The notes under the pieces are model-generated. The model had not been told where the DNA came from. It worked only from the letters and a program-made list of their open reading frames with translations, and ran no database searches. The position numbers and the translations under genes are program-made. Below, piece by piece: positions 1,468-56,766 of a stretch of DNA of 64,000 nt. Each line of letters starts with the position of its first letter. Within the stretch, counting starts at the first letter, position 1. The stretch comes from Deltaproteobacteria bacterium (GTDB lineage Bacteria; Myxococcota_A; UBA9042; PHBI01): NCBI GenBank assembly GCA_016792665.1, contig JAEUKJ010000340.1:28880-92879 (forward strand), given 5' to 3'.

Positions 1468-1646
1468 AGCGGCAGGCGTCGCCCGCCCCGTGGCTATTAC
1501 CTCGTCCTTTCAATACCTTACGACTCACCCTAAAGACGCGCGCGAGTTGCGCCCCGGCGTCGAACGTGGCAATCTACCGGCGTCTCGGGATTCGACAATC
1601 GTCTTGCACTTCGCGCCGCGCGCGTGAGTGGGGGAGAGTTCCGAGC

Positions 1647-1653
1647 AGGAGGA
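1647..1653 (+). promoter_or_regulatory. Shine-Dalgarno sequence AGGAGGA, 4 nt upstream of the ATG at 1658
   Basis: Direct read of gcaggaggaagcgATG. The preceding 1470-1627 stretch is distinctly AT-richer than the window and contains TTGCAC at about 1604; it is a probable promoter region. Confidence 0.45.
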
Positions 1654-1657
1654 AGCG

Positions 1658-2311
1658 ATGCCACTCGATACGGCGACCAAGAAGACCCTCGAGGCCACCG
1701 AGGCGGCCAAGAAGGCCGACAAGAAAGAAGACAAGACCAAGAAGTTGGTCAAGCCCGGCGACGACTTCGCGCAGGGTGCGGCGGCGCTCAAGCCGAAGAC
1801 CGACAACAAGAAGAAGGACGCCGACAAGAAGGCGACGCCCGAGGTCAAGGCCGCCAAGAAAGAGGCGGTGAAGAAGGAACCCGCCAAGCCTGAGCAGGCC
1901 GCGAAGAAGATCGTCGAGAAGAAGGACGATCCGAAGCTCAGCAAGAACGCGCTGCACGACGCGACCGTCGCCTCGCTGAACGCCGCGAAGTTCAACGAGA
2001 AAGAGCTCAAGCACTGGATCGCGACCTGCTCGGACATGCTCAAGCAGGCCGACAAGGACCAGGTCCAGGATCTCCAGGGCTGCATCGCGCGCTTCACCCA
2101 GGCGATCGAGGCCATGAAGACCTCGAAGGGCCTGGACGAGAAGGTCCTGGCGAAGTTCGTGGCCGACGCGAACGCCAAGGACCTCGACGCCGCGGCCGCC
2201 AAGGAGCTGATCGAGGAGGGCGAGGATCTCCTCCCGCAGGCTTCGAAGAGCCAGCTCGGCAGCCTGAAGAAGGCCATCGACAAGCTGCACAGCAACGCTG
2301 GCGCGTCCTGA
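1658..2311 (+). CDS. Lys/Ala-rich histone-H1-like hypothetical protein (217 aa)
   Basis: The ORF track lists 1628..2311, but the ATG at 1658 has a strong RBS. The N-terminal 90 aa are KKA/KKE/AKK repeats, very basic and low complexity. The C-terminal ~130 aa are predicted helical with two Cys. Codon usage is AAG-rich and atypical for the window. Its own terminator follows. Confidence 0.6.
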   Translation: MPLDTATKKTLEATEAAKKADKKEDKTKKLVKPGDDFAQGAAALKPKTDNKKKDADKKATPEVKAAKKEAVKKEPAKPEQAAKKIVEKKDDPKLSKNALHDATVASLNAAKFNEKELKHWIATCSDMLKQADKDQVQDLQGCIARFTQAIEAMKTSKGLDEKVLAKFVADANAKDLDAAAAKELIEEGEDLLPQASKSQLGSLKKAIDKLHSNAGAS

Positions 2312-2365
2312 TCGAGAGGTGCCGAGAGGCCCGATCCCAGGCGCAATCGTAGCGTTCGACCCCAA

Positions 2366-2397
2366 GCCCCGGTGCATCCCACCGGGGCTTTCTCGTT
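2366..2397 (+). terminator. Rho-independent terminator (9-bp GC stem GCCCCGGUG/CACCGGGGC, loop CAUCC, then UUUCUCGUU)
   Basis: Seen directly, 55 nt after the stop at 2311. It lies between the convergent genes ending at 2311 (+) and 2439 (-). Confidence 0.5.
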
Positions 2398-2438
2398 CCT
2401 CGGGCAGCCTCGCTCCGCGGGGGCGATCCTGGGCGGGT

Positions 2439-2816
2439 TCAGCCCTCGTTCAGCATGCCGATGACCAGCGACACCGTGTTCGCGACGGTCGACGCGGTGA
2501 GCGCCAGGAGCGCGTTCGGCACGCGCTGCCACGGCCTGCGCCGGGGGAGGACGGCCCAGATGAGGGCCGCCTCGGCGAGGTAGATGACCGCTTCGAAGGC
2601 CCAGACCGAGGCATCGTAGTGGGCGAAGAAGTAGTCGGCCCAGTGCTCCCACGTGAGCCAGAAGATCGGGTGCGTCACGGCCTGGAGGGCCACGCCCATG
2701 GCGAGCGCCGGCCCGAGCCCGAGGCGCCCGCGCAAGAAGAGCGCGAAGATCGGGGCCTCGGCCAGGACGGTGGTGAGAAAGGCCGGCAGCCACAGGGCGA
2801 ACCAATCCGGGCTCAT
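2439..2816 (-). CDS. small integral membrane protein (125 aa, 3-4 TM), hypothetical
   Basis: Hydrophobic segments are present. Its ATG overlaps the stop of the upstream membrane-protein gene (ATGA at 2813-2816), making it the last gene of the amidase operon. Confidence 0.5.
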   Translation of the reverse strand: MSPDWFALWLPAFLTTVLAEAPIFALFLRGRLGLGPALAMGVALQAVTHPIFWLTWEHWADYFFAHYDASVWAFEAVIYLAEAALIWAVLPRRRPWQRVPNALLALTASTVANTVSLVIGMLNEG

Positions 2817-3976
2817 GAGCGCTCCGTGAGAGGCATGGCGGGCTGCGGGGAGACGCCGTGTCCACGACGCGCGACGAGCGCCGCGATGATGCCGAGCTCG
2901 AGCCAGCCGTGGGCCAGCGCGGCCAGCAGGTAGACGTTGCGCACCTGACCGGCGTCGAAGGCGAGCGCAGCCGCGGGGATGGCCAGGGTCAGGACCACGA
3001 GGAGACCAAAGCCGATGGCGCCGAAGTCGCCGCGCACGCGCGCGAGTGAGCGCTCGAAGGTCGGCGGGGCGACACGCGGATCGAAGCGCTGCGGGATGAG
3101 GCGGAGCCAGATCGCGTAGTGCAGCGACTGTGCGAAGGCGTAGGTCGCGACCAGGCGCAGCGCGAGGTCGAGCTCGAGGCCCGGCGCGAGCGTGTCGGCC
3201 ATCTCGATGAGGCCGAAGTGGCCGACGTCGCCTTGGCTCGCGTGGTCGAGGAGGACCCCATCGAGCGCGCCCGAGAGCGGCAGCGCGAGCACCGCCAGGT
3301 AGCTGCCGGCGATGAGGAAGAGCGCGCGGCGCGAGACCTCGACGCGGAAGAGCCAGAGCCAGAGGCCGAAGGCCACGAAGTTGTGGACGTGCGCGATGAT
3401 GACCAGCGAGGTCCAGGGCGAGAGCAACGCGACCGCGGTGAGCGCCAGCACGACCGCGAAGGCCAGGCCCTTCTGGCGCGGATTGCCGCGCGGCGCGAGC
3501 GCGACCCCGCCCAGCATCGCCGCCGAGCCGAGGGCAATCTCGAGCTCGGCGTAGAACGGCGCCCCGAGCGTCGAGAGCACGCGCAAGAATGTCATCAGCA
3601 GAAGCGGCCCGAGGAGCAGGACGAGCCCGCGCCGACCCAGCGGCAGCGGCGGGCGCACGAGCAGGTAGCGGATATCGCTGGCGACGTGCGGGACTCCGAG
3701 GACGAGCGGCCCGAGGAGGAGCAGCCAGACCGGGGCGAGGACTGTCAGCGTGAGGGCCACGGCCATGTGGCCGAGCGCGAGAGTGGTGAGTCGGAGGCCG
3801 CGGTGGCGGATGCAGGCGCGTCCGAAGGCGGTCTTGGCGGAGAGGCGCCAGATCGGGCGCCGGACCGCATCGAACGGGGCCGCGAGCCAGGTGATGAGCG
3901 GCGAGCGGCGCGGCGCGGGCTCACCCGCGGGCGGGCGATCGTCCCAGGGCAGGATGCGGGTCGCGGGCGCCGTCAT
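2813..3976 (-). CDS. polytopic membrane protein (~387 aa, >=8 TM), hypothetical
   Basis: ORF 2813..4066. The ATG at 3976 (MTAPATRIL) forms an ATGA overlap with the amidase stop, which argues for that start. Multiple hydrophobic helices; HVHNFVAFG segment. Function unknown. Confidence 0.6.
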   Translation of the reverse strand: MTAPATRILPWDDRPPAGEPAPRRSPLITWLAAPFDAVRRPIWRLSAKTAFGRACIRHRGLRLTTLALGHMAVALTLTVLAPVWLLLLGPLVLGVPHVASDIRYLLVRPPLPLGRRGLVLLLGPLLLMTFLRVLSTLGAPFYAELEIALGSAAMLGGVALAPRGNPRQKGLAFAVVLALTAVALLSPWTSLVIIAHVHNFVAFGLWLWLFRVEVSRRALFLIAGSYLAVLALPLSGALDGVLLDHASQGDVGHFGLIEMADTLAPGLELDLALRLVATYAFAQSLHYAIWLRLIPQRFDPRVAPPTFERSLARVRGDFGAIGFGLLVVLTLAIPAAALAFDAGQVRNVYLLAALAHGWLELGIIAALVARRGHGVSPQPAMPLTERS

Positions 3977-6900
3977 CGGGCGCCTCCAGAACGCATGCGC
4001 CGAACCACGCGCCAGAGAGAGAGCCAGACCACGAGCTGCGAGACGAGCATGGAGACAGAGACGCACGAGCCGTCGAAACGCGAAGCGGCGCAGCCGTCGG
4101 TCTCGCGCACGCGCCCCGACAAGGTCCGCGTCGGGCGGCCCGGGGTCGCATTGCTTGCGGTGTCGGTGCCGTCGACGACCTCGACGTCGGGCTCGGGGGT
4201 CGGCTCGACCTGCTCGGGTCCGGGATCGGGGTCCGGGTCTCCGCAGGCGAGATCCGCCCAGGTGTCACGGCCCGGCAGGTCGGCGAGCAGGCTCGTCACC
4301 AGCGCGTTGCGTGCCTCGTCGGGATAGAGGGCCTCCAGCGGCACGCCGAAGACGAGCGCGGTGGCGCCGTCGGGGCGCGCGAAGCGAAGGCCGGCCGTGC
4401 CACCGAGGCCACCGGCATAGCTCGCGATGGGGGTCGCGCCCGCGACCGGCGTGAGCACGTCGGGGAAGGCGACGTCGTACGCGTGCGTGCCGTCGTCGAT
4501 GGCGAGCTGGGCGCCGTCGTGAGTGATGGCGTAGGTTCCCGCGCTGTCCGCGCCATAGGCGGCGCCGAGGCCGGCGAGGAAGGCGCGGTCCGAGGCCGAG
4601 CCCTTGAAGTCGAGGTCCCAGGCGAGCTCGGCACCTGACAAGAGCAGCGCGCGTCCCGGGCCGAGCCATGCGGAGAGGAGCCCCTGCTCGAGGTCGGAGA
4701 GCGTCTCGTCGACGGTGGACTCCTCGCCGAGGGCCCAGTCGACCAGGCCATAGGGGTCGAGCGCGACGGCCCGCGACGCGACCGCGGTCGCTTCCGCGGA
4801 GTCGAAGGCGAGCCCCGCCGCGGCCAGCGCGAAGGCATGCGGCACGAGCGCATCGAAGCGGTTCATCGCGTCCAGCCGCATGCGCAAGACCGTCCCGAGG
4901 TCGTAGGCCGAGAGGTCGTCCTGCGGCGCAAGGCCGGAGTCGAGCCGATAGAAGCCGTGGACCAACAGGGCGCGCGGGCGCGTCGTGCTGCAGGCGGGCA
5001 GGACCGCGACGACCGGGGTCGACAGCGACTCGCCGCCGGCGTTGACGGCCGTGACGCGGAAGAAGGTCGGCGCGTCGGGCGCGAGGTCGGTCAGCGCGAG
5101 GACGGGGTCGACGGTCTCGGTACCGTCGTCGAAGGCCCGGCCATCCTGGCTTCGATAGACGCGGAAGGCGCTGGCGAGGTCACCGCCGCCTTCGCGATCG
5201 GTGTCGGCGGCCCGCCACGTGAGCCGCGCCTCGCCGGGCCCGGTGCCGACCACCGCGAGCTCGCGGGGAGGCTCGGGCAGGAGGCGCACGGGCTGGCCGT
5301 CGCGGTCCGCGAAGTAGCGCACGAGGCCCTGGTAGAACGCGCGCGCGGCGACCTGGCGCATGCGTGGCTCTTTCAATTGGGCGGCGTCCGACGCGGTCGC
5401 GTGGAAGGCGACCTCGCAGAGGACTGACGGCATCTCGGGGTTGTGGTTCTTGTTCAGCTCGCCGAAGTAGGCCGAGTACACGCCGCGGTCGCGCCAGGTC
5501 GGATCGACGGCGGCGCGCAGGTCGGCGACGACCTCGTCGTGGACGAAGCGCGCGAGCTTGTCGCTGCCGGCGACGCCCGTGAAGTCGTAGGTCCCGTCGG
5601 GCGGGTTCGGTCCATAGACGTACGTCGAAGTACCGACGCCGGGTGAGGGCGCGTTGGTGTGCCAGGCCAGGTAGACCGCGTCCTCGCCGGCCTCGTTCTG
5701 CCAGGCCGCGTAGCGCGAGCGCGAGCCGACGTCGTCGCTGCGCTCGTCGGCCGTGTAGCGATAGACCGACTGCGGGGCGCCGGTGAACTGGATGTGGTAG
5801 CGGGCGTTCTCTTCCCAGCGCGGGCGGCCCGAGAGTGGCGAGGACGCGGGGCCCGAGCCGTTGCCGCGCGCGGCGTCGCCCATGCCGCCGCCCACGCGGA
5901 TCGCGTCGGCGCTGAGGGTCGCAGCGGCGCTGGCAGCATCGTTCCAGAGCTCGACGCGGCCCCCCGTCGCGAAGCGGAAGCGGCCGAGCGCGAACCAGGT
6001 CCCCCCATGGCGGCGCTGGTTCACGCGCACGTGCGAGGCTCCGCCGTCGTGGAAGACGACATAGTGCGCGTCGGTGGCACGCGAGGGGTCGGCGACCCAC
6101 GCGGCGTAGACCGTGTAGTCGGATCCGCGCGGCACTTCGAACGAGAACGTCGCCTTCGCGGTCGGTTCGCCGAGGGTCGCGTCGACCACGCGGCTCGCCC
6201 CGAGCGCGAAGGGATTCTCGCCTTCGACAAGTGGCGCCAGGCCGCCGCGATAGCCGCTCCCGAGGTCGCGCCAGGCCCCTGTTTCGCCATAGGTTCCGAC
6301 ACCTTCCCCGCGAGTGGCGCCCGCCGTGTCGGCGTCGACGATGACCATCGCGCGCTGGAGGTCGCGCTCGCGGACCGTGAAGACGGTGGCACCCGCGTTC
6401 TCGAGGTAGGTCACGAGAAGCTGATCGATCACCTCGGCCGAGACGAGGTCCTCGACGATGCCGTTGGTGTTGCCGCGCTGGGTCGCCCAGCGACCGAGCT
6501 CGGGCGTCCACGAGAACCCGTGCCCCGCCGACAGATAGACGACCTTGCCGCGCAGCGCGCCGTCGCGACGACGTCCGGGCTCGGCCGCGATGACGGCCTT
6601 GCCGACGCGTGGCGGCGCGACCGCGGGTCCGGCGCGAGGGTCCTCGTAGGGTCGTCGCGGCACCGGAGACACGGGCGGTAGCAGCGCCGCGAGCGGCACC
6701 CACGCGCCGGCCTGCGACACCCAGGGCAGGACGGAGCGGACCTCGAGCCCGGCTTCGTCGGCATCGCTCAGCGCCGCGCGCACGAGCGCTTCGAGGCCCT
6801 CCTCGGTGACAGCGGCCTCACCCGCAAACACGAGGTAGAGGTCGAGGCGCTCGCCGTCGAGCTCCGACGCGATGACCGTCGCGCCATCGGGCAGCGCCCA

Positions 6901-7038
6901 CGCGAGGGGTGGCGCCGGGGCGTGCGACCACGCAGGCGCGGCAAGCAACGTCGCCGTGACGAGGGCAAGGAGCTGCGCAGAGGCTTTCACGGGCGCGAAC
7001 ACGCGCCGAAGCTCACACGGAACCGCGGCTCGACGCAA
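3973..7038 (-). CDS. secreted N-acetylmuramoyl-L-alanine amidase (Amidase_3 with a large insert) plus fibronectin type III domain plus C-terminal extension ending in a Cys/TM/Arg tail (MYXO-CTERM-like)
   Basis: 1021 aa. Signal peptide ASAQLLALVTATLLAAPAWSHA. Amidase_3 halves GKVVYLSAGHGF...TVFTVRERD and NKNHNPEMPSVLCEVAFHATASDAAQL. FN3 segment GEARLTWRA...FRVYRS...FFRVTAVNAGGES. C-terminal tail GCAASRFDGSCVSVSMLVSQLVVWLSLWRVVRRMR. Confidence 0.8.
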   Translation of the reverse strand: MRRAAVPCELRRVFAPVKASAQLLALVTATLLAAPAWSHAPAPPLAWALPDGATVIASELDGERLDLYLVFAGEAAVTEEGLEALVRAALSDADEAGLEVRSVLPWVSQAGAWVPLAALLPPVSPVPRRPYEDPRAGPAVAPPRVGKAVIAAEPGRRRDGALRGKVVYLSAGHGFSWTPELGRWATQRGNTNGIVEDLVSAEVIDQLLVTYLENAGATVFTVRERDLQRAMVIVDADTAGATRGEGVGTYGETGAWRDLGSGYRGGLAPLVEGENPFALGASRVVDATLGEPTAKATFSFEVPRGSDYTVYAAWVADPSRATDAHYVVFHDGGASHVRVNQRRHGGTWFALGRFRFATGGRVELWNDAASAAATLSADAIRVGGGMGDAARGNGSGPASSPLSGRPRWEENARYHIQFTGAPQSVYRYTADERSDDVGSRSRYAAWQNEAGEDAVYLAWHTNAPSPGVGTSTYVYGPNPPDGTYDFTGVAGSDKLARFVHDEVVADLRAAVDPTWRDRGVYSAYFGELNKNHNPEMPSVLCEVAFHATASDAAQLKEPRMRQVAARAFYQGLVRYFADRDGQPVRLLPEPPRELAVVGTGPGEARLTWRAADTDREGGGDLASAFRVYRSQDGRAFDDGTETVDPVLALTDLAPDAPTFFRVTAVNAGGESLSTPVVAVLPACSTTRPRALLVHGFYRLDSGLAPQDDLSAYDLGTVLRMRLDAMNRFDALVPHAFALAAAGLAFDSAEATAVASRAVALDPYGLVDWALGEESTVDETLSDLEQGLLSAWLGPGRALLLSGAELAWDLDFKGSASDRAFLAGLGAAYGADSAGTYAITHDGAQLAIDDGTHAYDVAFPDVLTPVAGATPIASYAGGLGGTAGLRFARPDGATALVFGVPLEALYPDEARNALVTSLLADLPGRDTWADLACGDPDPDPGPEQVEPTPEPDVEVVDGTDTASNATPGRPTRTLSGRVRETDGCAASRFDGSCVSVSMLVSQLVVWLSLWRVVRRMRSGGAR

Positions 7039-20555: not shown

Positions 20556-20633
20556 CGCCCGCGACCTCGCCCCATGCTTGACCGCCCGCGCGCATCGCTG
20601 CTACGCGGGGGACCCCGTCCGAAGGAGCCTCTC

Positions 20634-21734
20634 ATGCGTCTTGGAACAAGCCTGTCGAAGTCCTGGACCATCGCGCTCCTCGTGCCGTTCGCGGGTCTCG
20701 CCGCATGTGACGGTGCGGCCACGGAAGACGACGGGCTCGACACCATCACGGCCGGCATCATCGCCGAGGGCTCGCCCGAGGCGCTCGGCATCCTCGGCTT
20801 CCTGAACGCCGTCACGACCACCGTGACCACGCTCGATATCACCGTCGGCCTCGACGCCCGCGCCGCCAAGGCCCTCGTCGCGCACCGCGACGGCCCCGAC
20901 AAGGCCTTCGGCACGGCCGACGACGACCGCTTCGGGTCGGTCCTCGAGGTCGACTCGGTCGCCTATGTCGGCACCGCGGCCCTCGACAAGCTGCTCGCGT
21001 ACTGCCGCAACAACAACCTCATCCCGCAGCCCAGCGACGTCCTCGGCACCTACCGCGACGTCCTCTTCACCATCGACGAGGGCACCAAGACCCTGGCGCT
21101 GGTCAACACCGCGACGCTCGAGCGCCTCGATGCGCTCATCGATGTGCGCGCCGCCAAGAACATCATCGCGGCCCGCCCCATCGCGTCGGTGCTCGACCTC
21201 TCGAAGATCACCTACGTCGGCACCAACGCGCTGAAGGTCCTGAAGGCCGCCGCCCTCGCCGGCCCGACCCAGCCGCCCGGCGCGACCGTCGCGGCCCACC
21301 TCGCCACGGCCTCGAACGGCCTCTGGCACACCAGCGAGTCGGACTACCCGTTCGTCGTCGTGCGCATCGCCGCCCCGCCCACCGGCTCGGCCGCGCTGAC
21401 CACGGCCAACATCAAGTCGGTCCTGGCCTCGGTCTACATGAATCGCCCCGAGGAGCCGACGCTTGCCCAGCGCGACGTCGAGCTCGTGACCCTCGACAGC
21501 TTCTTCGACCGCTACACGGTCGTCCAGGGCTGGTGGGAGGACGACCAGCGCGTCCAGGCCCCGGCGTTCTCCGCGCTGCGCCAGCTCCTCGAGCGCGAGC
21601 TCACCGACGTCAAGGTGTTCCGCCTCGGCCGCCGCTCGGGCAACTATCTGATGGGCGCCATCGACGTCTTCATCCTGGGCCGCACCTCGGATGGCGAGGT
21701 CGTCGGCATCAGCACGATCTCCGTCGAGACCTGA
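20634..21734 (+). CDS. hypothetical lipoprotein with two ComEA-like helix-hairpin-helix motifs
   Basis: ORF 20574..21734. ATG at 20634. Lipobox FAGLAAC. HhH repeats LNAVTTTVTTLDITVGLDARAAKALVAHRDG and VNTATLERLDALIDVRAAKNIIAARP. The C-terminal ~170 aa have unknown function. Confidence 0.6.
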   Translation: MRLGTSLSKSWTIALLVPFAGLAACDGAATEDDGLDTITAGIIAEGSPEALGILGFLNAVTTTVTTLDITVGLDARAAKALVAHRDGPDKAFGTADDDRFGSVLEVDSVAYVGTAALDKLLAYCRNNNLIPQPSDVLGTYRDVLFTIDEGTKTLALVNTATLERLDALIDVRAAKNIIAARPIASVLDLSKITYVGTNALKVLKAAALAGPTQPPGATVAAHLATASNGLWHTSESDYPFVVVRIAAPPTGSAALTTANIKSVLASVYMNRPEEPTLAQRDVELVTLDSFFDRYTVVQGWWEDDQRVQAPAFSALRQLLERELTDVKVFRLGRRSGNYLMGAIDVFILGRTSDGEVVGISTISVET

Positions 21735-33284: not shown

Positions 33285-35441
33285 CTAGTCGTAGTAGTAG
33301 ATGACGTCCGCGCTCTGGATACACGCGACGCCTTCGCTCACGACCGAGTTGCTGGCCGTGTCGAAGCAGAAGCACTCGAAGTTGATGCACGTCCCGACGA
33401 TGATCTCCGTGCTCGTGGCGTGGTCGATCGTCTGGTCGAGGAGCGTGACGCCCGCATCGAGGAGGTCCACGAAGTCGGCCTGGAGCTGCACCGAGGTCGC
33501 GTTGCCACCCGACTGGTTGATGGCGCCGAGGTCCGCGATATAGCCGAGGTTGGTCGCCTGGAAGGAGACCTTGTCGGCGGTCGCGGCGCTGACGATGGCG
33601 CCGAGGTCGGCCTGGCGCTGCGCGATGAAGTCGTTCTTGGCCGAGATGTTGCCAAGCACCGTGGCGAGCTGGTCGAGTCGGCCGTTGTTGGCCTCATCGT
33701 AGCTCGCGATGAGCTCGTTCCGCGCCGCCAGCGCGGCGACCAGCTGGCCTTGCTTCTGCTGGAGGGAGGCCTGGGCGCCGAGGATCTCCGCGTCGAGCTG
33801 CGCGATGACGGCGGTGTGCGAAGCCACTTCGTTCTGGAGCTGCTCATCGAGCTGGAGATACGCGTCGTTGGCGTCCTGGTAGCTCCCGTAGGTCGTGCCC
33901 TCGACGACCCAGGTCTGGGGATCCTCGACCACGATCGGGGACGCGCCGAGCGCGGCGAGCCGGCCGGCGGCGTTGTCCAGCGACGCCTGGATCCCGACGC
34001 GGCTGTCGAGGTAGGAGGCGATATCGTTCTGCAGGTTGGCGATGTTCGCGTCGAGGCCATCGATCTGCTTCGCGTGGTTCGCGAGGTCGACGCTGTACTG
34101 CTGGTCGGCGCGCGCGATCAGCACATCGACCTGCGCCTTCTGCGCCAGCAATCCCTTGAGGTCGTTGCCCGCGTTGATGATGTCGACGCGCGGCGGGGCG
34201 ATCTCGCTGTGGCGGGTCTCGAACGCCGCGATCTTGCCGATCGCCTCGCTCTTGCCGAGCTGGAAGCGCAGCAGATCGAGCGAGGTGCAGCCGGGGTCGC
34301 TGGACGCGGTGACCGACGTGCCATCGTAGTGGTAGCAGAAGAGACGCGGCACGCCGAAGGGCGTGTACTCGGTCTTGACCTCGTCGCCACCGTTGAGCGG
34401 GTGCTGCGAGCAGGTGAGGCCACCCGTCGGCCCCGTCACCGGGACGTCGAAGTGGATGACCGGGTAGCTCGCGTTGCTCGCGGTCCAGCCGGAGGTCATC
34501 TGGGTCGCGTCCGAGGCGGTCGCGAAGAGCGACACGCTGCAGTCGGCCTGGCTCTGGTCGATGCCGATGGCGATGTTCCAGAACTTCTTCGCGCAGGTCT
34601 CGCCGTCGCAGTCGAGGTCCTCGCTGCCGGTGTAGACGGCATACTGCCACACCGCGTCTTCGAGGTCCGGGTCGGGGTTGAGGGCGGTGTACGCGTTGCC
34701 GGGCGCGATGCTCGGGTCGAGGGCGATCGTGTCGCCACCGCAGGTGACGCGCACGTCGCCGTCGATGTGCAACACGGTGTCGCCGCCGGGACCGCCGGTG
34801 CAGGCGATGGCGGCGACGACGGTGTCACCGCGCGAGCCGTCGGCCTGGAAGAGGAGCTGGAGGGCGTCGTCGTTGGCGTCGGTGCAGTCGAACTTCGCCG
34901 AGCAGAAGATGTCCTCGAAGTTCACCGCGATGTCGAAGAAGCCCTGGTTGGCGTCGCGCATGATGGTGAGGTTGAAGGTGACCGCGGTGTCCTGGTTCTC
35001 TTTGCAGTCGAACGCGAGCGTGCAGCCTTCGGCGCCGCAGGGGTTCTGCCAGTTGGACTGGCCGTCGTCGGCGATGTCGTCACCGCCGGCATCGTAGAGG
35101 CCGTCGACCCACACCGTGACGGTGTTCGACTGCACGCCGTTCGGGCCCGACGCATCGCACGGCCCGACGTAGCTGATGTCGCCGCCGGGGCCGCTGCCGT
35201 ATTGCCCCGAGCAGATCGTCTCGTCGCCGTCGGCCCACGAGGTCAGGGGATCGCCCTTGGACCACACGGTCTCGTTGGCGGCGTTGGCGACCCGAAGGTC
35301 GAAGCAGGCCTGGGCGATGCCGGGCAGGGTCAGGGGGAGGGTCGCGATTTGCACGGTGCGCCCCGGGGGCGCCGTGCCGGTGTCCGCGCAGGCGACGAGG
35401 GCCAGCGCGCCCGCAAGGGACGAGCAGAGGAGAGCTTTCAT
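33285..35441 (-). CDS. large hypothetical lipoprotein (718 aa): Cys-rich N-terminal half, coiled-coil-rich C-terminal half
   Basis: Lipoprotein signal MKALLCSSLAGALALVAC. About 30 Cys in the first 400 aa; heptad-like Q/A/L-rich segments from about 430 to 640. No catalytic motif recognised. Confidence 0.65.
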   Translation of the reverse strand: MKALLCSSLAGALALVACADTGTAPPGRTVQIATLPLTLPGIAQACFDLRVANAANETVWSKGDPLTSWADGDETICSGQYGSGPGGDISYVGPCDASGPNGVQSNTVTVWVDGLYDAGGDDIADDGQSNWQNPCGAEGCTLAFDCKENQDTAVTFNLTIMRDANQGFFDIAVNFEDIFCSAKFDCTDANDDALQLLFQADGSRGDTVVAAIACTGGPGGDTVLHIDGDVRVTCGGDTIALDPSIAPGNAYTALNPDPDLEDAVWQYAVYTGSEDLDCDGETCAKKFWNIAIGIDQSQADCSVSLFATASDATQMTSGWTASNASYPVIHFDVPVTGPTGGLTCSQHPLNGGDEVKTEYTPFGVPRLFCYHYDGTSVTASSDPGCTSLDLLRFQLGKSEAIGKIAAFETRHSEIAPPRVDIINAGNDLKGLLAQKAQVDVLIARADQQYSVDLANHAKQIDGLDANIANLQNDIASYLDSRVGIQASLDNAAGRLAALGASPIVVEDPQTWVVEGTTYGSYQDANDAYLQLDEQLQNEVASHTAVIAQLDAEILGAQASLQQKQGQLVAALAARNELIASYDEANNGRLDQLATVLGNISAKNDFIAQRQADLGAIVSAATADKVSFQATNLGYIADLGAINQSGGNATSVQLQADFVDLLDAGVTLLDQTIDHATSTEIIVGTCINFECFCFDTASNSVVSEGVACIQSADVIYYYD

Positions 35442-35739
35442 TGACGGCTCCGAGGGTAGGCGATGGGGGCTGTCCGTGACGGAACGCCGGGGAGGCCGCC
35501 GCGTGGCCTTGGGTCACGAGCCTCTTCCCGGCACCGCGGCGATGCCGCGCAACATGACCTCGGGAGCCCGCAACTCCATGAACGAGGTTCACCCGAGCAT
35601 TATCCCAATCGGAACGCGGGGAACAGGACAATCGCCGAGGGCCAGAGAAGACGTGAGCTCGGACCTGTCCATGCGACCGGTGTACGCGGTCCGTGATCAC
35701 ACCTAGCCTCGGCCACCATGGAAGAACCCGCCATTCCCG

Positions 35740-46364: not shown

Positions 46365-46448
46365 CCCGAGCGAGCACGCCTCCCATCGCGCGCGCGCTTT
46401 GTGTACTCTGCCTGCGTCGCGGCGGCCGACCGCCGCGCAGGAGCCCCG

Positions 46449-49400
46449 ATGTCGTCACTCAAGTCGTTCGCTCTCTCGGGCATCGTCGCGCTCGCGACCC
46501 TCGCGGCCTGCTCGTCCGATGACGCCGCCCCGACGGTCCACACGGCCGCGCTGCTCGGCGACTCCGGCGACCCCTACCTCCTCGCCGCGCCCGCCACGCG
46601 CAGCGGTGCCTCGGCCGCCGCCGACCAGTCGCGCTTCTACCGCATTGCGGTGCCGGCCGATCACCAGGGCCTGCGCATCGCCGTCCGCGCCACCGCCAAG
46701 GTCGATGCCTGGGTGCGTCGCGGCGGCGCCCAGGGCGGCGCGCTGGCCTCGGGTGCCGACCTCGCGCGCCACACCTTCTTCTTTCCCCAGGACCAGGTCA
46801 CCGCCGACAGCGACTGGTGGCTCGAGGTCAAGCCTCGCGCTGCCGCCACCATCGACGTCCAGGTCGAGGCCCTCTACGCCCGCCCCCTGACCTGGGATGA
46901 CGGCGCCACCTTGCTCGGCACCCAGGCCGCGACCCGTCCGGCCAACGCGTTCGGCGACCACCTCTACAAGATCAACGCGACCCTCGCCCGCTACGGTGCG
47001 TGGCGCAACGTGCTGCGCGTCTCGGCTGGCGAGGCCGACCTCTTCCTCTACCCCGGCTCCTTCCCGCCCGACTGGTCCAGCTGGAACGGCACCGCGGTCG
47101 GCTCGGACGCCGTCACCCTGGCCCAGCCCGAGTTCCAGGAGAACCAGGTCTGGTACCTGCGCGTGCGCGCCGGTTCGAACGACGCGAACTGGTCGCTGCT
47201 CTCCGGCGACCTCTTCGTCACCGACTTCGGCGCCCTCGCCAACGACGCCCCGCGCACGCTGACCTACGATGTCGGCGGCGTCGCTTACTTCAAGACCGAA
47301 GCCCAGGCCGACACGCTCGCGTGGCGCCTCCGCGCCGCCGGCGCCCAGCTCTACATCAACGACACGCAGGCCCCGGTGCCGCGCTACGGCGCCTCGACCT
47401 GGGACTACCGCTACGACGACGAGGCCCTCCTCGTCCCGAGCTACCTCACCGCGCGTGGCTACCTCGTCGCGGTGACCGGCACCGGCACGACCGTCTCGGT
47501 CGACTCGAAGAAGCACACGGTCATCGATCCGCTGACCGTCGGCGGCGTGACCAACGGCTTCTCGTTCACGGTCTCGAACACCGACGACGCGGGCTTCGGC
47601 TATCGCACCTACAAGGTCGTCGTCCCCGTCGATCAGATCGCCTGGCAGGTCGCGCTGAAGCCCCTCTCGGGCGAGGTCGACCTCTACGTCGCCAAGGAAC
47701 GCGTCCCGAGCGAGCTCCTGAACCAGGGCCTCTCGGAGATCGCCGGCGTCACCGACACCGTGACGCTCGTGCCCCCGAGCCTCTCGAACGGCGTCTTCTA
47801 CGTGACCGTCAAGGGCCGCGCGCCCTACTCCTTCCAGCTCGTCTCTGGCAACCCGACCATCACCGACATCGCCTTCGTCAACGACCCGACCCCGGTCGAC
47901 AACGGTGCGGCCTTCACCGGGCTGGCCGGCTGGCGCTACTACCGCGTGCCCGACATCGAGTCGCAGGTCGGGGCACTCGGCTGGATCCTCGAGCTCGAGA
48001 ACCAGGTCGCGGGCACGCAGATCGCCCTCCGCAGGAACGCCGTCCCGGGCCGCTGGAACTACCGCGACACCAACACCTACGGCCAGCTCAGCTACACCGA
48101 GCACATCGACCACCAGAGCGCGCTCGGCTTCCTCGAGCGCCCGAACCACCCGGCCGACATCTGGTACATCGGCATCTATCAACCCAGCGCCGCGCTCGGG
48201 GCCTTCAAGCTGCGCACGAAGGTCATGACCGCGACCGACCTCACCTTCAACGGCGGCTCGCTCAACGTCTCGAACCAGACCTCGGGCCGCTGGCGCTACT
48301 TCAAGGTGAACGTCCCGGCCGATGCCCAGGGCTGGGATCTGCGCCTGGACCCGGTCACCTCGGGCCGCCCGCACATGGTCGTCCGCGCCGAGCTCGTGCC
48401 CGGCACCTTCGGCAATGACCCATGCTGCTACCCGCCGATCTGGGGCCGCGACGAGTGGCTCTCGGGTTGGCAGTGGGCCGCCTACGCCGACCTCACGCGC
48501 CGCCCCACCCAGTACATCGCCAACCCCGAGGCCTACATCGACGAGTCCGGGCGCATCCTCACGGGCGGCATGGGCAACCCGATCCGCCAGGGCGTCTTCT
48601 ACATCGGCGTCTCCGACGTGTGGACCACCCCCGACGGGGTTCCCATGTCGTACACGCTGAAGTCGCGCGGCATCGGCACCGGCGCCACCTGGAGCCTGCC
48701 CATCCAGACGCTCGCCTTCGTCAACGGCACCGCCACCGTGACCGGCCTCGCCCCGCGCGAGGTGCGCGTCTACAAGATCGACGTGCCGGCCAACGCCAAG
48801 AGCTGGTTCCTCGAGCTCACGCCGACCGTCGGCGACGCCATGATGGCCATCCGCAAGGACGTCGTCCCCAACGTCGAGGCTGGCTACTCGACCTCCGACA
48901 CCGCCTATGGACGCACCGGGGCGCGGCGCCAGAAGAACGGCTACGAGCTCTTCTATCGCTATCCCGAGTACGACAAGACCGCCCTCGAGGGCGGCACCTA
49001 CTACGTCATGGTCGGGGCCGAGGGCGCGGCCACGGCGCAGGACAGCGTCGTCCGCGGTGGCACCACCAGCTTCACGCTGAAGAGCTGGGGTGAAGCGACC
49101 ATCACCGATGGCGTGCTCACGACCGAGGCGCCGCTCACCTTCTCGAACCAGACGCTGCGCTACGGCGAGCAGAAGGCCTATCGCTTCACGGTGCCCGACG
49201 GGGTCTCGAGCATGGAGATCCGCATGGCCCGCAGCGCGGGCAATCCCTACATGAACGTCACGCGCTCGGGCGTGCAGGCGACCCCCTCGCAGAGCTACGC
49301 CGCGGCCGAGGGCGGGCACTACCCGGCCTACTCCGACGACGACATCATCACCGTCCAGGCCCCCGCCGGGACCTACACGATCACCGTCACGGCGCAGACC

Positions 49401-52400
49401 GCGAGCGGCCCGACCCCGGAGATCGGCGCGAGCTACGGCCTCGAGATCACCGCGCGCGGCGAGAGCATCATCGCGCTGAACGGGGGCACGGCCGCGGTCG
49501 TCGACCAGGACAGCCAGACCTGGCGCTACTTCAAGGTCACCGTGCCCGAGGGCCCGCTGGGCTGGGATCTGCGCCTCGAGAACGTCGTCAGCGGACGCCC
49601 GCGCATGGTCATCCGGCGTGACGACCTGCCCATTCAGTTCTACACCGACCCGTGCTGCTACCCGGCCCTGCCGCTGCGCACCGAGTGGCAGACCGGCTGG
49701 ACCTGGGCCCCGGCCGGCGAGCTCACCCAGCGCAACTACGCCTACTACGACGACCAGACCTACCAGGGTGGCGCCGAAGAGTACGGCCGCCGCGTGTCGA
49801 TGGGGCTCGGCTCGCCGCTCGAGCCCGGGACCTACTACGTCGGCATCTCCGACACGTATCAAGGACAGACCGGCGACCCGATGAGCTACGAGCTCGTGAG
49901 CCGCGGCATCGGCATCGGCAACGACGGCGACGGTCACCCCTGGCTCGTGCAGGTCGAGGACCTCGACTTCGCGAGCGGCACGTCGACCAAGACCCTCGAC
50001 CCGCGCGAGCACGCCTACTACCGCGTGCAGGTGCCCGAGGGCGCCAAGAGCTGGGAGCTCTTCCTCGAGCCCTCGCTGGGCGAGGCCATGATGGCCATCA
50101 ACCGCGCGGCCCTGCCCAGCGCGGACGCGTCGAGCTCGTACGGGACCGAGAACGGTGGCGCGCGCCGCCAGAAGACCGGCTACGAGATCTTCTATCGCTA
50201 CCCCGACTACAACACCGAGGCGATCCCCAGCGGCACCTTTTTCGTCGGCGTCGGCGCCGAGGGTCAGGATGCCTACTCGTCGAGCTACGTCGGCCAGGGC
50301 CCGACCACGTTCACGCTGCGCAGCGAGGGCGAGGTGCCGGTGACGGTCGCCAGCGCGCCGCTCGGAGGCGAGCCCATCCGCTTCGCCCATGAGACGCTTC
50401 GCTACGGCGAGCAGAAGGTCTTCCAGTTCGAGGTCCCCGACGGCACGAAGTCGATGGAGGTCCGCCTCGAGAACAAGGTCGGCCGGCCCTACATGGCGAT
50501 CGGCAAGAGCGCCAAGATCCCCGTCCCCGCGCAGTATTACGCCGCTGCCATCGGCGGCGACTACGGCTTCGCGCAGGGCGAGGGCATCACCACCGTGGCC
50601 GACCCCGCCGGCACGTACACCGTCATCGTCAGCGGCTACTGGCACGACCAGCAGGGCGCCGTCGATTCGCAGTTCGACCTCGTCATCGAGGCCCTGGGCG
50701 AGACCGCGCTCGTGTTCAACGGCGGCGACGTCGCCGTCACGGCCCAGCCGACCCAGACCTGGAAGTACTTCCGCGTGAACGTCCCCGACGCCAAGGACCA
50801 CGGCCTCCTCGGCTGGGACCTCCGCCTGGACGGCGTCACCAGCGGCCGCCCGCGCATGGTCATCCGCCGCGACGACCTCCCCGACAGCTTCTACACCGAC
50901 CCGTGCTGCTACCCCGCCCTGCCCGGCCGCGGCGAGTGGCAGACCGGCTGGCGCTGGGCCCCGGCTGGCGAGCTCACGCAGCGCAACTACGCCTTCTACA
51001 ACCAGGTGGACTACACGGGCGGCGAGGAACAATACGGCCGCCGCGTCTCGATGGGCCTCGGCACGCCGCTCCAGCCCGGCGCCTACATCGTCGGCGTCTC
51101 GGACACCTACACCTCGGCCGGCCCTGCGATGACCTATCGCATCGTCTCGCGCGGCATCGGTATCGGCCTCGAGTCGGCCGAGGCCAACGCCATCCCGTGG
51201 TCCATCCAGGTGCGCGACCTGCCCTTCGGGACCGAGGTCACGGCTCAGAACCTCGCCCCGCGCGAGCACATCTACTACCGCCTGCAGGTGCCAGAGGACC
51301 TCGAGAGCTGGGCCGCCGAGCTCGAGCCGACCCAGGGCGAGGTCATGCTCGCCGTGCGCGAGGGCGCCCTCCCCAACGCCGACGCCACGCAGAGCTACGC
51401 CTCGGACGACAGCTACTATCGTATGGGCACGCGCCGCCAGAAGAACGGCCGCGAGTGGTTCTACAAGCTGCCCTGGTACGACCAGCGGACGCTCCGCGGC
51501 GGCACCTTCTACCTCGCCGTCGCAGGCGAGGGCGAGAACGCCTACAGCTCGAGCTACGTCGGCCTCGGCCCGAGCGCGTTCAAGCTCCGCACCATGGGAC
51601 CCGTGCCCATCGCGGGCGGCATCGACAACGTGGTCGCGACCCAGCCGCTGACCTTCGCCAACCAGCAGCTCGCCTGGGGTCAGCAGAAGTACTACCGCCT
51701 GCGCGTGCCGCCGACGGTCGACGCCTTCGAGGTGCGCCTCGCCAATCGCGTCGGCAATCCCTACTGGGTCGCCGCGGTCGAGCCCTACTTCCAGCCGAAG
51801 ATGCCGCAGGGCACGACGCCCTACTACTACTCGGCCGAGGGCGGGACCTACCCCGATGGGGCCAACGACATCGCCGACCAGATCGTCGGGGTCACGGGTG
51901 ACGTGACCATCGCGGTCTACTCGAACGGGTCGGAGCAGGTCGACAACAGCTACGACCTCATCGTGACACCAATTGCTGTCAAGAACCTGGCCTGGGATGG
52001 CGGCGACGAGGCGGTCACCCTGAAGGACCGCGAGACCGCCTACTTCAAGGTCGAGGTCCCCCAGGACTGCGACGGCGTGGCGCAGGCCGGCTGGATCGTC
52101 ACGCAAGAGGTCACGCGTGGACAGGTCTCGGTCGAGGTCCGGAAAGACACCCTGCCGCGCGCCCCGACCGGGCCCGCGTCGCTCACGACCAGCGCCAAGC
52201 AGACCGTCATCGTGCCCCCCTTCCTGGAGCCCGGCACCTGGTACGTCGCCGTCAAGGCCACGGGCAACGCCGAGGTCCGCATCACCACCGAGGAGGTCAA
52301 GGAAGCGCGCCACTGGACGATGCCGAAGAAGAACGTCAACGCGACGACCCCGGGCCTCAACCATCCCTTCTTCGCCGACACCGGCGTGAAGGACGACGGC

Positions 52401-55400
52401 ACGCCCATCTCGAACCAGGGCACGGGTGACCAGGGCGTCGACCTCGGCGAGGGCAAGTACCGCTTCTACCGGGTGACCATCCCGGCCGACAACGGCGGCC
52501 TCTTCCGGACCCGCATGGAGGCCATCTCCGGCAACCCGCAGCTCTACATCCGGCGCGGCGCCGCCCCGACCTTGAACAGCATGCCCTACCCCTACGGCTA
52601 CCAGTACATCGACTATCGCGACGAGCGCGAAGGCAGCTCGTACGGGCACTGGGTCACGACCGACACGCGCTACGGGCCCGAGCTCGCCCCCGGCGAGTAC
52701 TGGGTGGCCATCTATGCGCAGGGGTCGAACGTGCGCTACCGCCTCTCGCTGGACGTCGGCGTCGTCCAGGACCTCGCCCTCCGCGGCGGCGCCATCACCG
52801 GGCACGCCCTGGCCGCGGGCGACATGCGCTACTACCGCGTGACCATCCCGCAGTCGTCGACCCAGGCCAACACCGGGACGCCGGTCGACTGGACCCTGAC
52901 GCTGACCCAGCAGAGCGGCGACGCGCTCGTGCTCTTGCGTGAGGACGTCCCGCCCGGCCTCTACACGGCCGTCCCGCAGCCGAACCAGGGCGACTACTAC
53001 CTCCGCGACTGGAACGGCGATCGCAACGGCTACATCTACGGGCTGAACCAGCTCCCGAACCTCGACAACACCGGCCCGAAGACCTTCTCGACCCCGGTCT
53101 TGAAGCCCGACACGACCTACTGGGTCGGGGTCTACGCGCGCACCGACACGGTCTATGATCTCGGCTCGCAGGCCTCTGCCGCGACCCTCAAAGTCGACGC
53201 CACCCTCGCCTACCGCGGCGCCACGCTGGACACGAACGTGCCCGCCGGACAGTCGCGCCTGTATCGGATCGATGTGCCGGCCGATGCCGCGCGCTACCTC
53301 CACACGGCGACGGTCAATGACGGCGTCTGGCTCCAGCTGTCGGCCGGCTATGTGCCTCCGGGCCCGCCGAACCGGACCTACGCGGACTGGACCAACTCGG
53401 GCTACGGCTACGCGTCCAACCTCGACCGCCCCCTCGAAGCACCCGGCGGCTACATCGGCAACTTCCCGTGGGTCGCCAACGAGAGCTACTACCTCGCCGT
53501 CGAGAACACGACCGCCACCACGCAGAACGTGCACGTGGTCTTCGATGGGCGCCCGGCCAACGACGACTCCGACACCGATGGCCTGCCCGACGGCTGGGAG
53601 TACAAGTACTTCGGCGGCCTCTACTACGACGCCACCTCGGACTACGACGGCGACACGCTCAGCAACGGCAGCGAGCTCGCCCTCGGCACTGATCCGACCC
53701 GCCGCGACACCGACAACGACTCGGTCGACGACGGCCTCGAGCTCATCGCTGGCGCCAACCCGCTGCTCGCCGACACCGACCTCGACCAGGTCTGCGACGG
53801 CTCGGACTCGGCGCCGAACGACCCCAACGAGTCGGGCAAGATCATCCGCCTCGTCATGGGTCGCTACGACCGTGGCAGCTACGGCAAGAACTACGGCTCG
53901 AACGAGCACACCACGCGGCTCGCGGCGGTCTTCGCGAAGGACCCCTCGGCCCGGATGCACTGGCTCCACATCCAGGGCTGGGACATCGAGTCCGCCAACG
54001 AGGTCGAGGTCTTCCTGAACGGCGTGTCGCTGGGCTTCCTGCCCGTCGGCGGCAACAACGCCTTGTCGACCCCGGTCCTCTTCATGGTCGACTCGAATGA
54101 CCTCCTGGCCTACGGCGACAACCGCCTCGAGCTCCGCCAGAAGACCAGCGGCGAGACCTGGGGCGCAACCCAGCTCGGCCTCTTCACCTTCGGCGAGAGC
54201 TTCGGCTTCGACCCGACCCAGGCCTACGACACGCGCCATCCCCAGGGCATCGATCTGCGCTGGAAGGGGCTCACCGACTCGTTGCTCGAGCTCCGCGCCT
54301 TCGACCTCGATCGCCCCGACGAGATCAGCGTGACGCTCGATGGCGGCGCCTTCCTCGGCAAGCTGGTCCAGACGGACAACAACGCGTGGACGCCGTACCT
54401 GCAGACACCGTTCGTCGCGGCCGATCACGCAGCCGCCCCGACCTCCGGGTGGCGCATGCTCGCGGTGCGTCCGCGCGCCGACTCGGACGGCTGGCAGTTC
54501 CGGCTGGTCGACCAGCGCCCCATCCTCTCGACCTTCGGGACCGAGCAGAACTCCGGCGAGAACGGGCACGCCCGCGGCGAGGTCCACTTCCTCCTGCCCG
54601 ACGGCAAGCCCGAGCTGCGCGAGCTCGTCCTGCAGTATCGGGTGAGCGACGGCGAGTCGGTCGCCCTCACGCGCACGAGCGGCAAGGCGCTCACCTGGGC
54701 CTCGGCGAACTACTACACGTGGAGCCCGAACACCGCGTCGTTCTCGGCCGCGGGCGCCTCGGACGAGGTCGCCGTCAAGCGCATCGCCTCCGAGCCGCCG
54801 GCCTCGTACGTGGTCTTCGCGGTGGCCGTTCGCTACTACGGCCCCTGCACCGACTTCGACCAGAGCGGGGTCCTCGACTGCGAAGAGGTCTGCGAGGATC
54901 TCGACCAGGACGGCGTCGACGGGCGCGGCCCGCTCTGCGGGACGGGCACCGACTGCGACGACAACAACCCGGGGGTGGGCGCGGCCGACGGCGACGCCGA
55001 CTGCGATGGCGTGCCGGGTCAGATCGACTGCGACGACAACGACCCCGAGGTCACGACGACCTCGGCGACCGACGCCGACTGCGACGGCGTCGTGACGGCT
55101 GACGACTGCGACGACTTCGACCCGACCAACACCCGCAGCCCGGCCGGCGACCTCGACTGCGACGGCGTCGCCGACGGGTCCGACTGCGCGCCGAGCGACC
55201 CGCAGAAGCCGAACTTCGACGCGGACTGCGACGGCACCCCGACCTCCAGCGACTGCAACGACCAGAACCCGAGCCAGCCGTCCAACGACGCCGACTGCGA
55301 CGGCTCGCCGAGCGGCACCGACTGCGACGACAACGACCCGTCGGTCCAGACCTGCCCGACCGGCTGCCTCGACAACGACGGCGACACCCACAGCGGACGC

Positions 55401-56639: not shown

Positions 56640-56687
56640 GCGCGTCCGATCCGTTCCCGGTCCGTCGCGCGTCGGGTTGTGTGACCG

Positions 56688-56712
56688 CCAGGTCAAACGG
56701 AGCGCTATCATC
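56688..56712 (+). terminator. hairpin GGAGCGC-uaucauc-GCGCUCC, 50 nt after the giant gene's stop (no U tract)
   Basis: Seen directly. It may only attenuate transcription, since the next gene starts 55 nt later with its own GGAG RBS. Confidence 0.3.
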
Positions 56713-56766
56713 GCGCTCCGTAAGGCCCGGGCACGGGTCGAACACCGTCCACCGCACGGAGCCTTC

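Follow-up and report, generated by a model that had tools for sequence, protein, structure and literature searches.

In many bacteria, hfq lies 3' of mutL and miaA, and a gene of another kind in that position raises the question of what it encodes and whether its location tells anything about its role. Such a gene is found in a stretch of 64,000 nucleotides from a Deltaproteobacteria bacterium assigned to Myxococcota_A (assembly GCA_016792665.1, contig JAEUKJ010000340.1, positions 28,880 to 92,879), which is referred to here, at its full length, as the window. The gene encodes a Lys-rich protein of 217 residues, and a first-pass annotation based on the sequence alone had described it as a stand-alone, histone-H1-like gene with atypical codon usage. 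It is a real, free-standing unit without an operon partner, and its low GC content is a consequence of amino-acid composition, not of foreign codon usage. The product is best described as a variant within the broad class of bacterial proteins in which a small helical domain is joined to a Lys-rich disordered region. As to its function, the tentatively favoured reading is that of a non-enzymatic adaptor, the tail of which would bind a polyanion weakly while the helical domain would bind a partner.

The coding sequence (CDS; 1658..2311, forward strand) extends from an ATG at 1658 to a TGA at 2311 (217 codons plus stop), and stands alone on its strand between the miaA stop codon (1467) and a convergent gene whose stop is near 2439. 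GC content at codon positions 1, 2 and 3 is 0.60, 0.36 and 0.93, and this is the sole frame in the region with the coding signature of the host; the antisense open reading frames (ORFs) that overlap it, at 1525–2865 and 1574–2377, have third-position GC (GC3) of 0.76 and 0.62. A Shine-Dalgarno sequence, AGGAGGA, was read at 1647..1653, four bases 5' of the ATG, and the homologues carry GGAG or GAGGA ahead of their own ATG. A GTG at 1628 is present as an alternative start, but is unlikely to be used, because all homologues start with MP(L/F/Y)D, from an ATG that has a GGAG-type site ahead of it, and because alignment of the DNA 5' of the ATG to the locus of the closest homologue (L001) requires indels of lengths not divisible by three. 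Downstream, an intrinsic-terminator-like hairpin occupies 2366..2397, with the stem-loop GCCCCGGUG-CAUCC-CACCGGGGC (2366–2388) followed by UUUCUCGUU; its RNA fold has an energy of -22.2 kcal/mol (z -5.0), and the equivalent hairpin in L001 is followed by UUUUUCGUU, a better U-tract than that of the window. A simple consensus terminator scan of the window did not list the hairpin at 2366–2388. The initial description of a stand-alone 217-residue ORF with a strong ribosome-binding site (RBS), a terminator of its own and an AT-richer upstream region is thus borne out, the last by a 190-nt intergenic 5' region (1468..1657, promoter and leader) with a GC content of about 0.63 compared with about 0.73 around it.

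Comparison with the homologues, which are 76% to 25% identical to the window protein and differ by in-frame indels, indicates that the gene is real and under selection. The dN/dS of close pairs is 0.32–0.48, values that are probably overestimated because GC3 bias constrains synonymous sites. The sole point in favour of a spurious ORF is that long chance ORFs are common in this 70% GC DNA. That explanation, together with that of a known ribosomal protein, can be discarded with near certainty, given the GC3 of 0.93, purifying selection, the conserved RBS and terminator, and the lack of a match to any ribosomal-protein family.

The atypical codon usage claimed for the gene in the first-pass annotation was not upheld. 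For every amino acid, synonymous choice resembles that of 15 other window genes (AAG 0.93 versus 0.96, GAG 0.88 versus 0.90, GAC 0.81 versus 0.86), and an index akin to the codon adaptation index (CAI) reaches 0.785, near the top among window genes, one giant ORF having 0.80; usage is therefore host-typical, even optimised. The local drop in GC is entirely due to amino-acid composition, the protein containing 44 Lys, 39 Ala, 21 Asp and 16 Glu, with Gly at 3%. Lys makes up 20.3% and Arg 0.5% of the residues, a ratio of 44:1 compared with about 1:4 in neighbouring genes; in 27 other ORFs examined in the window, which has an overall GC content of 70.5%, Lys ranges from 0 to 5.6% and Arg from 2.7 to 15.7%. 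The preference extends to the folded domain (17 Lys, one Arg), and every family member contains only one to three Arg. This composition indicates that Lys has been strongly selected over Arg in the face of GC mutational pressure, in the tail and in the folded domain alike. Horizontal acquisition was considered and is rejected because of the host-like codon usage; a tblastn search of plasmids yielded no homologue either.

Relatives of the protein are few. A word-indexed search covering 5.8 billion proteins retrieved two homologues (76% and 48% identity), an exhaustive profile search covering 1.84 billion cluster representatives retrieved five, and a profile of the C-terminal domain retrieved nine in all. 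Altogether the family comprises about 11 clusters with one or two member sequences each, all from metagenome assemblies or metagenome-assembled genomes (MAGs), and none is named beyond ‘hypothetical protein’. These clusters dispel the concern, raised when the gene was first described, that orthologues might be absent. Two subfamilies can be distinguished: A, formed by the window protein, P0001, P0002/P0003 and P0005/P0013; and B, formed by P0006–P0011, which are 25–32% identical to the window protein. A scan of GTDB genomes and two scans of metagenome contigs with the family alignments gave no family member among the matches listed, which are weak negatives since these scans relied on short, partly low-complexity peptide patterns that would miss subfamily B. 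A 1.2-kb JGI contig (L090; metagenome 3300036954, Ga0377211_0157874) is 98.9% identical to positions 2015–3244 of the window, implying that the same species was present in that sample. Literature searches turned up no account of a protein of this kind in myxobacteria. The protein belongs to a very rare family specific to a narrow, uncultured Myxococcota-like lineage.

Three parts can be recognized in the protein. The first is a conserved N-terminal head (residues 1–16, MPLDTATKKTLEATEA, 1658..1705), predicted as a short helix, which AlphaFold2 places at residues 5–16 with low confidence (about 50). It carries the motif MPxDxK(T)KK, in which M1, P2 and D4 vary little if at all; basic residues are found repeatedly at positions 8–9, with strict conservation in subfamily A only. 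A conserved extreme N-terminus with recurring basic residues, followed by a disordered charged region, would be in keeping with a partner of a ParA/MinD-type ATPase, whose activity a Lys-bearing N-terminal peptide would stimulate by analogy with McdB, PomX and ParB. No ParA-like gene lies beside any family member, though, and a role of this kind is extremely unlikely.

The second part is a disordered tail rich in Lys, Ala, Asp, Glu and Pro (residues 17–92, 1706..1933), in which KK doublets are interspersed with acidic residues and for which AlphaFold2 predicts disorder, with a pLDDT of about 40 (below 50). Head and tail together (residues 1–92) hold 27 Lys, no Arg and 18 Asp or Glu (20% acidic), giving a net charge of +9 and a pI of 9.6, with +0.10 net charges per residue; the whole protein has a net charge of +8 and a pI of 9.2. 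Every member has a tail of 86–95 residues with a positive net charge (+0.05 to +0.11 per residue). The motifs (S/T)KKK-LV, ALKPK and KAAKKEAxKKxPxxPE are kept, and the tail holds H1-like KAAKK and AAKK elements. Residue order is kept beyond composition in four of five comparisons (z 6–12 versus shuffles; the exception is P0010), and conservation of the tail is no lower than that of the folded domain, pairwise identities averaging 0.44 and 0.36, respectively. Conservation of both length and residue order suggests specific contacts rather than a mere spacer. Tandem Repeats Finder detected no array in the tail DNA: the units it listed, 12 or 18 nt long, are present in 2.0–2.4 copies and score 34–46. 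A repeat finder showed low-complexity similarity only. Of the original description of the N-terminal 90 residues as Lys-rich repeats, the Lys-rich and disordered character stands (for about 92 residues), while the repeats amount to two-copy runs.

The likeness to histone H1 and AlgP that had been proposed for this segment is compositional and weak. In Pseudomonas, AlgP and PhaF consist of a helical domain and a Lys-rich disordered ‘histone H1-like’ domain and tether granules to the nucleoid; AlgP has a net charge of +55 and PhaF of +35, with pI values above 11 (PMC9239181). The granules tethered are of polyphosphate or polyhydroxyalkanoate (PHA). The window protein resembles them in its bipartite structure, with an alpha-helical domain of about 125 residues and a disordered domain containing Lys, Ala and Pro, in being non-enzymatic, and in the use of Lys and avoidance of Arg. 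It differs in that the domain order is reversed, its tail being N-terminal, and in that the tail has 92 residues compared with 154–195. KPAA tandem repeats, present in theirs, are missing from its tail, which is 20% acidic; the protein has a net charge of only +8 and a pI of 9.2, and there is no sequence or family match. Charge, repeats, domain order and sequence all lead us to reject membership in the AlgP/PhaF family. The C-terminal domain of eukaryotic linker histone H1 and chlamydial Hc1 likewise share with the tail a Lys/Ala/Pro-rich disorder with scattered AAKK and KAAKK elements, whereas the window protein lacks a winged-helix globular domain and a Pfam match, contains many Asp and Glu, and has a low net charge. 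The PAKKA-type tails of mycobacterial HupB/MDP1 and Ku are, as far as the available accounts of them go, also Lys/Ala low-complexity extensions on a folded domain in a high-GC bacterium; in those accounts, however, they are repeat arrays on known DNA-binding folds (HU, Ku), whereas the tail of the window protein is non-repetitive and its fold has no known match.

These comparisons bear directly on a nucleoid condenser of the H1, Hc1 or AlgP type, the reading that corresponds to the initial suggestion of a nucleoid-associated or nucleic-acid-binding protein. A Lys/Ala/Pro-rich disordered segment with KAAKK-type elements, a pI of 9.2 and a probable abundance would all fit such a protein. A tail that is 20% acidic, with a net charge of +9 compared with +55 in AlgP and +35 in PhaF, would not, nor would the lack of a tandem array of short repeats (KPAA, AKKA, SPKK), the overall electrical neutrality of some family members, and the absence of any match to linker-histone, Hc1 or phasin families. 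A condenser is thus quite unlikely.

The third part of the protein is a C-terminal domain (residues 93–217, 1934..2308), near-neutral in charge and without conserved catalytic-type residues. The full-length AlphaFold2 model shows six helices in residues 96–215, and a model of the domain alone, built from a seven-sequence alignment, has a pLDDT of 86.7 and a pTM of 0.66. Ala occupies most of its invariant positions, alongside E151, K154 and Q199, and its conserved motifs are RFxQAxEALKxPKG and ASKxQ. A helical domain of about 130 residues with two Cys had been anticipated, and the model agrees, with about 125 residues and six predicted helices; the two Cys are present in the window protein, but outside its closest homologue they are replaced by Ala/Ser or Gly, and a redox or metal site is rejected on this ground. 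As there is no conserved pattern of His, Cys or Asp, the protein is judged not to be an enzyme. It is cytoplasmic, neither a signal peptide nor a transmembrane segment being visible in the sequence.

Searches for relatives by fold or family gave nothing significant, in agreement with the earlier view that the family is an unrecognised one. Foldseek comparisons with PDB and BFVD covered the full-length model and that of the domain alone. For the domain, no match lies at E <0.5 and TM-scores do not exceed about 0.45, the one exception being a 78-column match to a designed protein (TM 0.57, E 3.3); over both models, the top matches are generic helical repeats (Fis1, 14-3-3 and designed proteins), those to Fis1 and 14-3-3 having E values of 0.3–1.4 and TM-scores of 0.33–0.44. 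Pfam and NCBIfam scans of the protein and seven family members returned no family at cut-off, including tetratricopeptide repeat (TPR), linker-histone, Hc1 and phasin families. Searches of PDB by sequence and by family profile also found nothing, and since PDB includes ribosome structures, and no ribosomal-protein family of NCBIfam or Pfam was matched either, the possibility raised at the outset of a known ribosomal protein finds no support. PHROG matches were limited to E values of at least 0.008 and were inconsistent across members, and PADLOC gave a single match, to KwaB (16.7 bits, E 7.5e-4), for the window protein only. The KwaB match and one to Closter_coat (E 0.004), each seen in one member only, were dismissed as chance. 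Together with the plasmid search, these results give no support to a protein of anti-phage defence or of a mobile element. As modelled, the domain is confidently folded and corresponds to no family or fold in the databases covered.

A layout of head, disordered linker and helical domain also invites comparison with PopZ, the protein of a polar hub, in which a short N-terminal helix and a disordered linker precede a C-terminal helical oligomerisation domain. The three-part layout would be shared, the linker of the window protein being of conserved length; the linkers differ in charge, acidic in PopZ and basic and ampholytic in the window protein, and the two proteins have no sequence relation. 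By this analogy, the protein might be a pure protein-protein scaffold or hub in which no nucleic acid is involved: the head would dock on a partner, perhaps a helical domain belonging to a second copy, the tail would act as a length-tuned entropic linker and the domain would oligomerise. Such an arrangement would accommodate the constancy of the linker at 86–95 residues and a tail that is a well-mixed polyampholyte (about 0.45 charged, net charge per residue about +0.1), and the weak top fold matches, none of them significant, are to helical-repeat peptide binders (Fis1/TPR, 14-3-3). On the other hand, AlphaFold2 shows no confident docking of the head on the domain, no partner gene is conserved nearby, and the extreme preference for Lys over Arg would be left unexplained. 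A scaffold is therefore a possible explanation, but not the first choice.

The adaptor reading brings these features together in a different way. The protein would be non-enzymatic, cytoplasmic and probably abundant, formed by a short conserved head, a weakly basic disordered tail of about 90 residues and a compact six-helix domain. The KK doublets of the tail would make weak, multivalent and salt-sensitive contacts with a cellular polyanion, candidates being nucleoid DNA, ribosomal or other RNA, and polyphosphate, while the helical domain would associate either with another protein or with itself. In its working logic the protein would resemble AlgP and PhaF, and not a condenser of the histone-H1 type. 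In favour of this reading are the net positive tail with its KAAKK elements and conserved length and order, the selection for Lys over Arg, the confidently modelled domain, and the bipartite precedent of AlgP and PhaF. We infer here that the protein is highly expressed, binds a polyanion and serves as an adaptor, the first of these from the strong Shine-Dalgarno sequence, the terminator belonging to the gene itself and the CAI-like value of 0.785. The absence of a conserved neighbouring gene suggests that the protein acts on a general cellular component and not within a dedicated operon. Nucleic-acid binding is plausible.

Several observations weigh against this adaptor. The main weakness is the low net charge, +8 in the window protein and near zero in subfamily B, the members of which have net charges of about +1 to +2 over the whole protein. 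Acidic residues account for 17–20% of the tail, which should therefore bind DNA or RNA electrostatically much more weakly than H1, Hc1 or AlgP does. Neither sequence nor fold searches revealed a nucleic-acid-binding domain, and the rarity of the family leaves the comparative evidence thin. The low net charge keeps alive both the scaffold and a further explanation, in which the protein is a stress protectant or hydrophilin, an abundant, soluble, Lys-rich shield of macromolecules during desiccation or sporulation. The protein is very hydrophilic and half disordered, its use of Lys over Arg is a composition of the solubility type, and the gene is lineage-restricted and monocistronic with a regulatory region of its own, all of which a protectant could share. 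Yet there is no match to a late embryogenesis abundant (LEA) or hydrophilin family, Gly is low (3%), and specific binding would better account for a well-folded domain and for a tail of conserved residue order; a protectant is accordingly unlikely.

The position of the gene can now be considered. Upstream, the C-terminal part of MutL (PF08676) is encoded at 6–587 and MiaA (PF01715, E 3e-77) at 577–1467, so that the mutL-miaA pair was correctly recognized at first sight. The named closest MiaA proteins are from MAGs of Myxococcota, ‘Deltaproteobacteria’ and Myxococcales (48–55% identity), and the nearest relatives overall are 62–66% identical, which points to an uncultured Myxococcota lineage as the probable source of the window. 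A MiaA scan of GTDB genomes, which was dominated by generic patterns (best match 45% identity), served only to show how often hfq is linked to miaA. The E. coli Hfq query is validated by its matches in 30 MiaA loci. Among the 80 unrelated loci surveyed (L003–L082), hfq is the gene immediately 3' of miaA in 30, spanning Gammaproteobacteria, Bacillota, Acidobacteriota and two deltaproteobacterial genomes. Within the window, which covers 64 kb of the genome, tblastn with the same query gave a best E value of 0.38 and hence no hfq.

Conservation of the miaA-adjacent position in relatives, suggested earlier as a check, was not found; among the family loci examined, it is seen in the window only. 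The nearest MiaA relatives (five loci, L093–L097, with three MiaA proteins) keep mutL-miaA, and their next gene encodes a PQQ_2-like protein of 345–394 residues. Elsewhere the family member follows an S4-type pseudouridine synthase gene (L002, L087), lies after a Ser/Thr kinase gene and before a gene for a CXXCH protein of about 200 residues (L085, L086 and L091, subfamily B), or stands beside unrelated genes (L083/L092, L084). The contig of the closest homologue (L001) ends 197 nt upstream of the gene and so does not show whether miaA adjoins it; the only neighbour common to this locus and the window is the downstream convergent gene for a probable membrane protein. The protein might in principle be an RNA chaperone that displaced hfq in situ. 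Besides the frequent occurrence of hfq at that position and its apparent absence from the window, it could be argued for such a replacement that two family contexts follow RNA-modification genes (miaA and the S4-type pseudouridine synthase). But the lack of miaA adjacency in other family loci, the PQQ_2-like gene in the nearest MiaA relatives, the Ser/Thr kinase gene ahead of subfamily B members and a predicted all-alpha fold that is not Sm-like all speak against it, as does the extent of genome covered, since hfq may lie elsewhere. The resemblance to Hfq is confined to the position 3' of mutL-miaA; there is no Pfam Hfq/LSM match and no Sm/LSM signature, and the position is not conserved within the Lys-rich family. 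A replacement of Hfq is consequently very unlikely. The first-pass annotation was right about the location, but the ‘hfq slot’ carries no functional weight here, because the neighbours differ within the family and the nearest MiaA relatives harbour another gene there.

A bolder interpretation would see in the family a class of chromatin- or RNA-associated proteins of an uncultured Myxococcota lineage, with a previously unseen six-helix fold and a polyampholyte tail of conserved length selected for Lys, which would organise the nucleoid or RNA by a weak multivalency distinct from that of H1 and AlgP, possibly taking over Hfq-like or linker-histone-like duties. This is improbable as a whole. If the tail binds nucleic acid or polyphosphate, the protein would represent a third design of bacterial Lys-rich tether proteins, with an acid-interspersed, non-repetitive and length-constrained tail on a fold without a known relative, and it would be a clean example of Lys selection against GC mutational pressure. 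It nevertheless joins the many hypothetical proteins confined to particular lineages of uncultured Myxococcota, with neither an operon partner nor a cultured host, and its immediate value is modest.

Expression signals upstream of the gene are less well defined than those around its start and end. Alignment with L001 reveals a GTGGCA box at 1566–1571 and three further shared boxes, GCGTCTCGG (1580–1588), CGCGTGAG (1621–1628) and GTTCCGAGCA (1638–1647). A sigma-70 consensus scan found no promoter upstream of the gene. A sigma-54 promoter at the GTGGCA box was considered, the GG-N10-GC spacing being suitable in both the window and L001, and was rejected as there is no TGC at -12; the absence of the box from some family members weakens this reading further. 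The box also occurs in L087 and L083 and is complementary to UGCCAC at the start codon (1638–1664 region), and GUUCC lies directly 5' of the Shine-Dalgarno sequence in the window. Translational control through the leader is possible on these sequence features; the segment 1560–1670 folds with a z of only -2.3. Rfam matched no family in the window, and no tRNA was found in it.

Three subfamily B loci share a conserved upstream region. In L084 (180–402), L085 (9780–10000) and L091 (2800–3043), about 220 nt are 84% identical overall, and more than 90% identical over about 110 nt before the Shine-Dalgarno sequence, whereas the coding sequences reach no more than 67% nucleotide and 55% amino-acid identity. 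This candidate regulatory leader contains a TA(A/G)AAT box, a strong hairpin (GACGCGACAG-CGGA-CTGTCTCGTC) and a GAAGTTCCTT box that pairs with the Shine-Dalgarno sequence in an RNAalifold prediction from the three sequences.

Downstream and convergent on the gene, two hydrophobic ORFs of 125 and 417 residues lie on the reverse strand at 2439–2816 and 2813–4066, with a 4-nt overlap; their products are probably membrane proteins to judge from their hydrophobicity, and no match to either was found in Pfam, NCBIfam or PADLOC. The shorter ORF (2439–2816) is kept beside the gene in L001 and L090. Next on the same strand (3973–7038), a protein of 1021 residues combines Golvesin_C, Amidase_3 (N-acetylmuramoyl-L-alanine amidase) and fn3 domains; the vicinity of an AmiB-type amidase to mutL-miaA recalls the amiB-mutL-miaA-hfq cluster of E. 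coli, the amidase gene being here on the opposite strand. At 20556–21734, the window encodes a protein with a NuiA (nuclease-inhibitor-like) domain, and L092 (3586–4674) encodes another, both of about 360–390 residues; the latter gene is about 3 kb from the family member of that locus, a co-occurrence that probably reflects related genomes only. Further along, on the reverse strand (33285–35513), a 742-residue product with an Arg content unusually low for the genome (2.7%) and a sub-threshold intermediate-filament match (PF00038) is probably a long coiled-coil protein. Finally, two giant ORFs occupy the forward strand at 46365–56639 (3424 residues, with a PPC domain as its only Pfam match) and 56599–63999 (more than 2467 residues, running off the window), both with a GC3 of 0.95–0.96.

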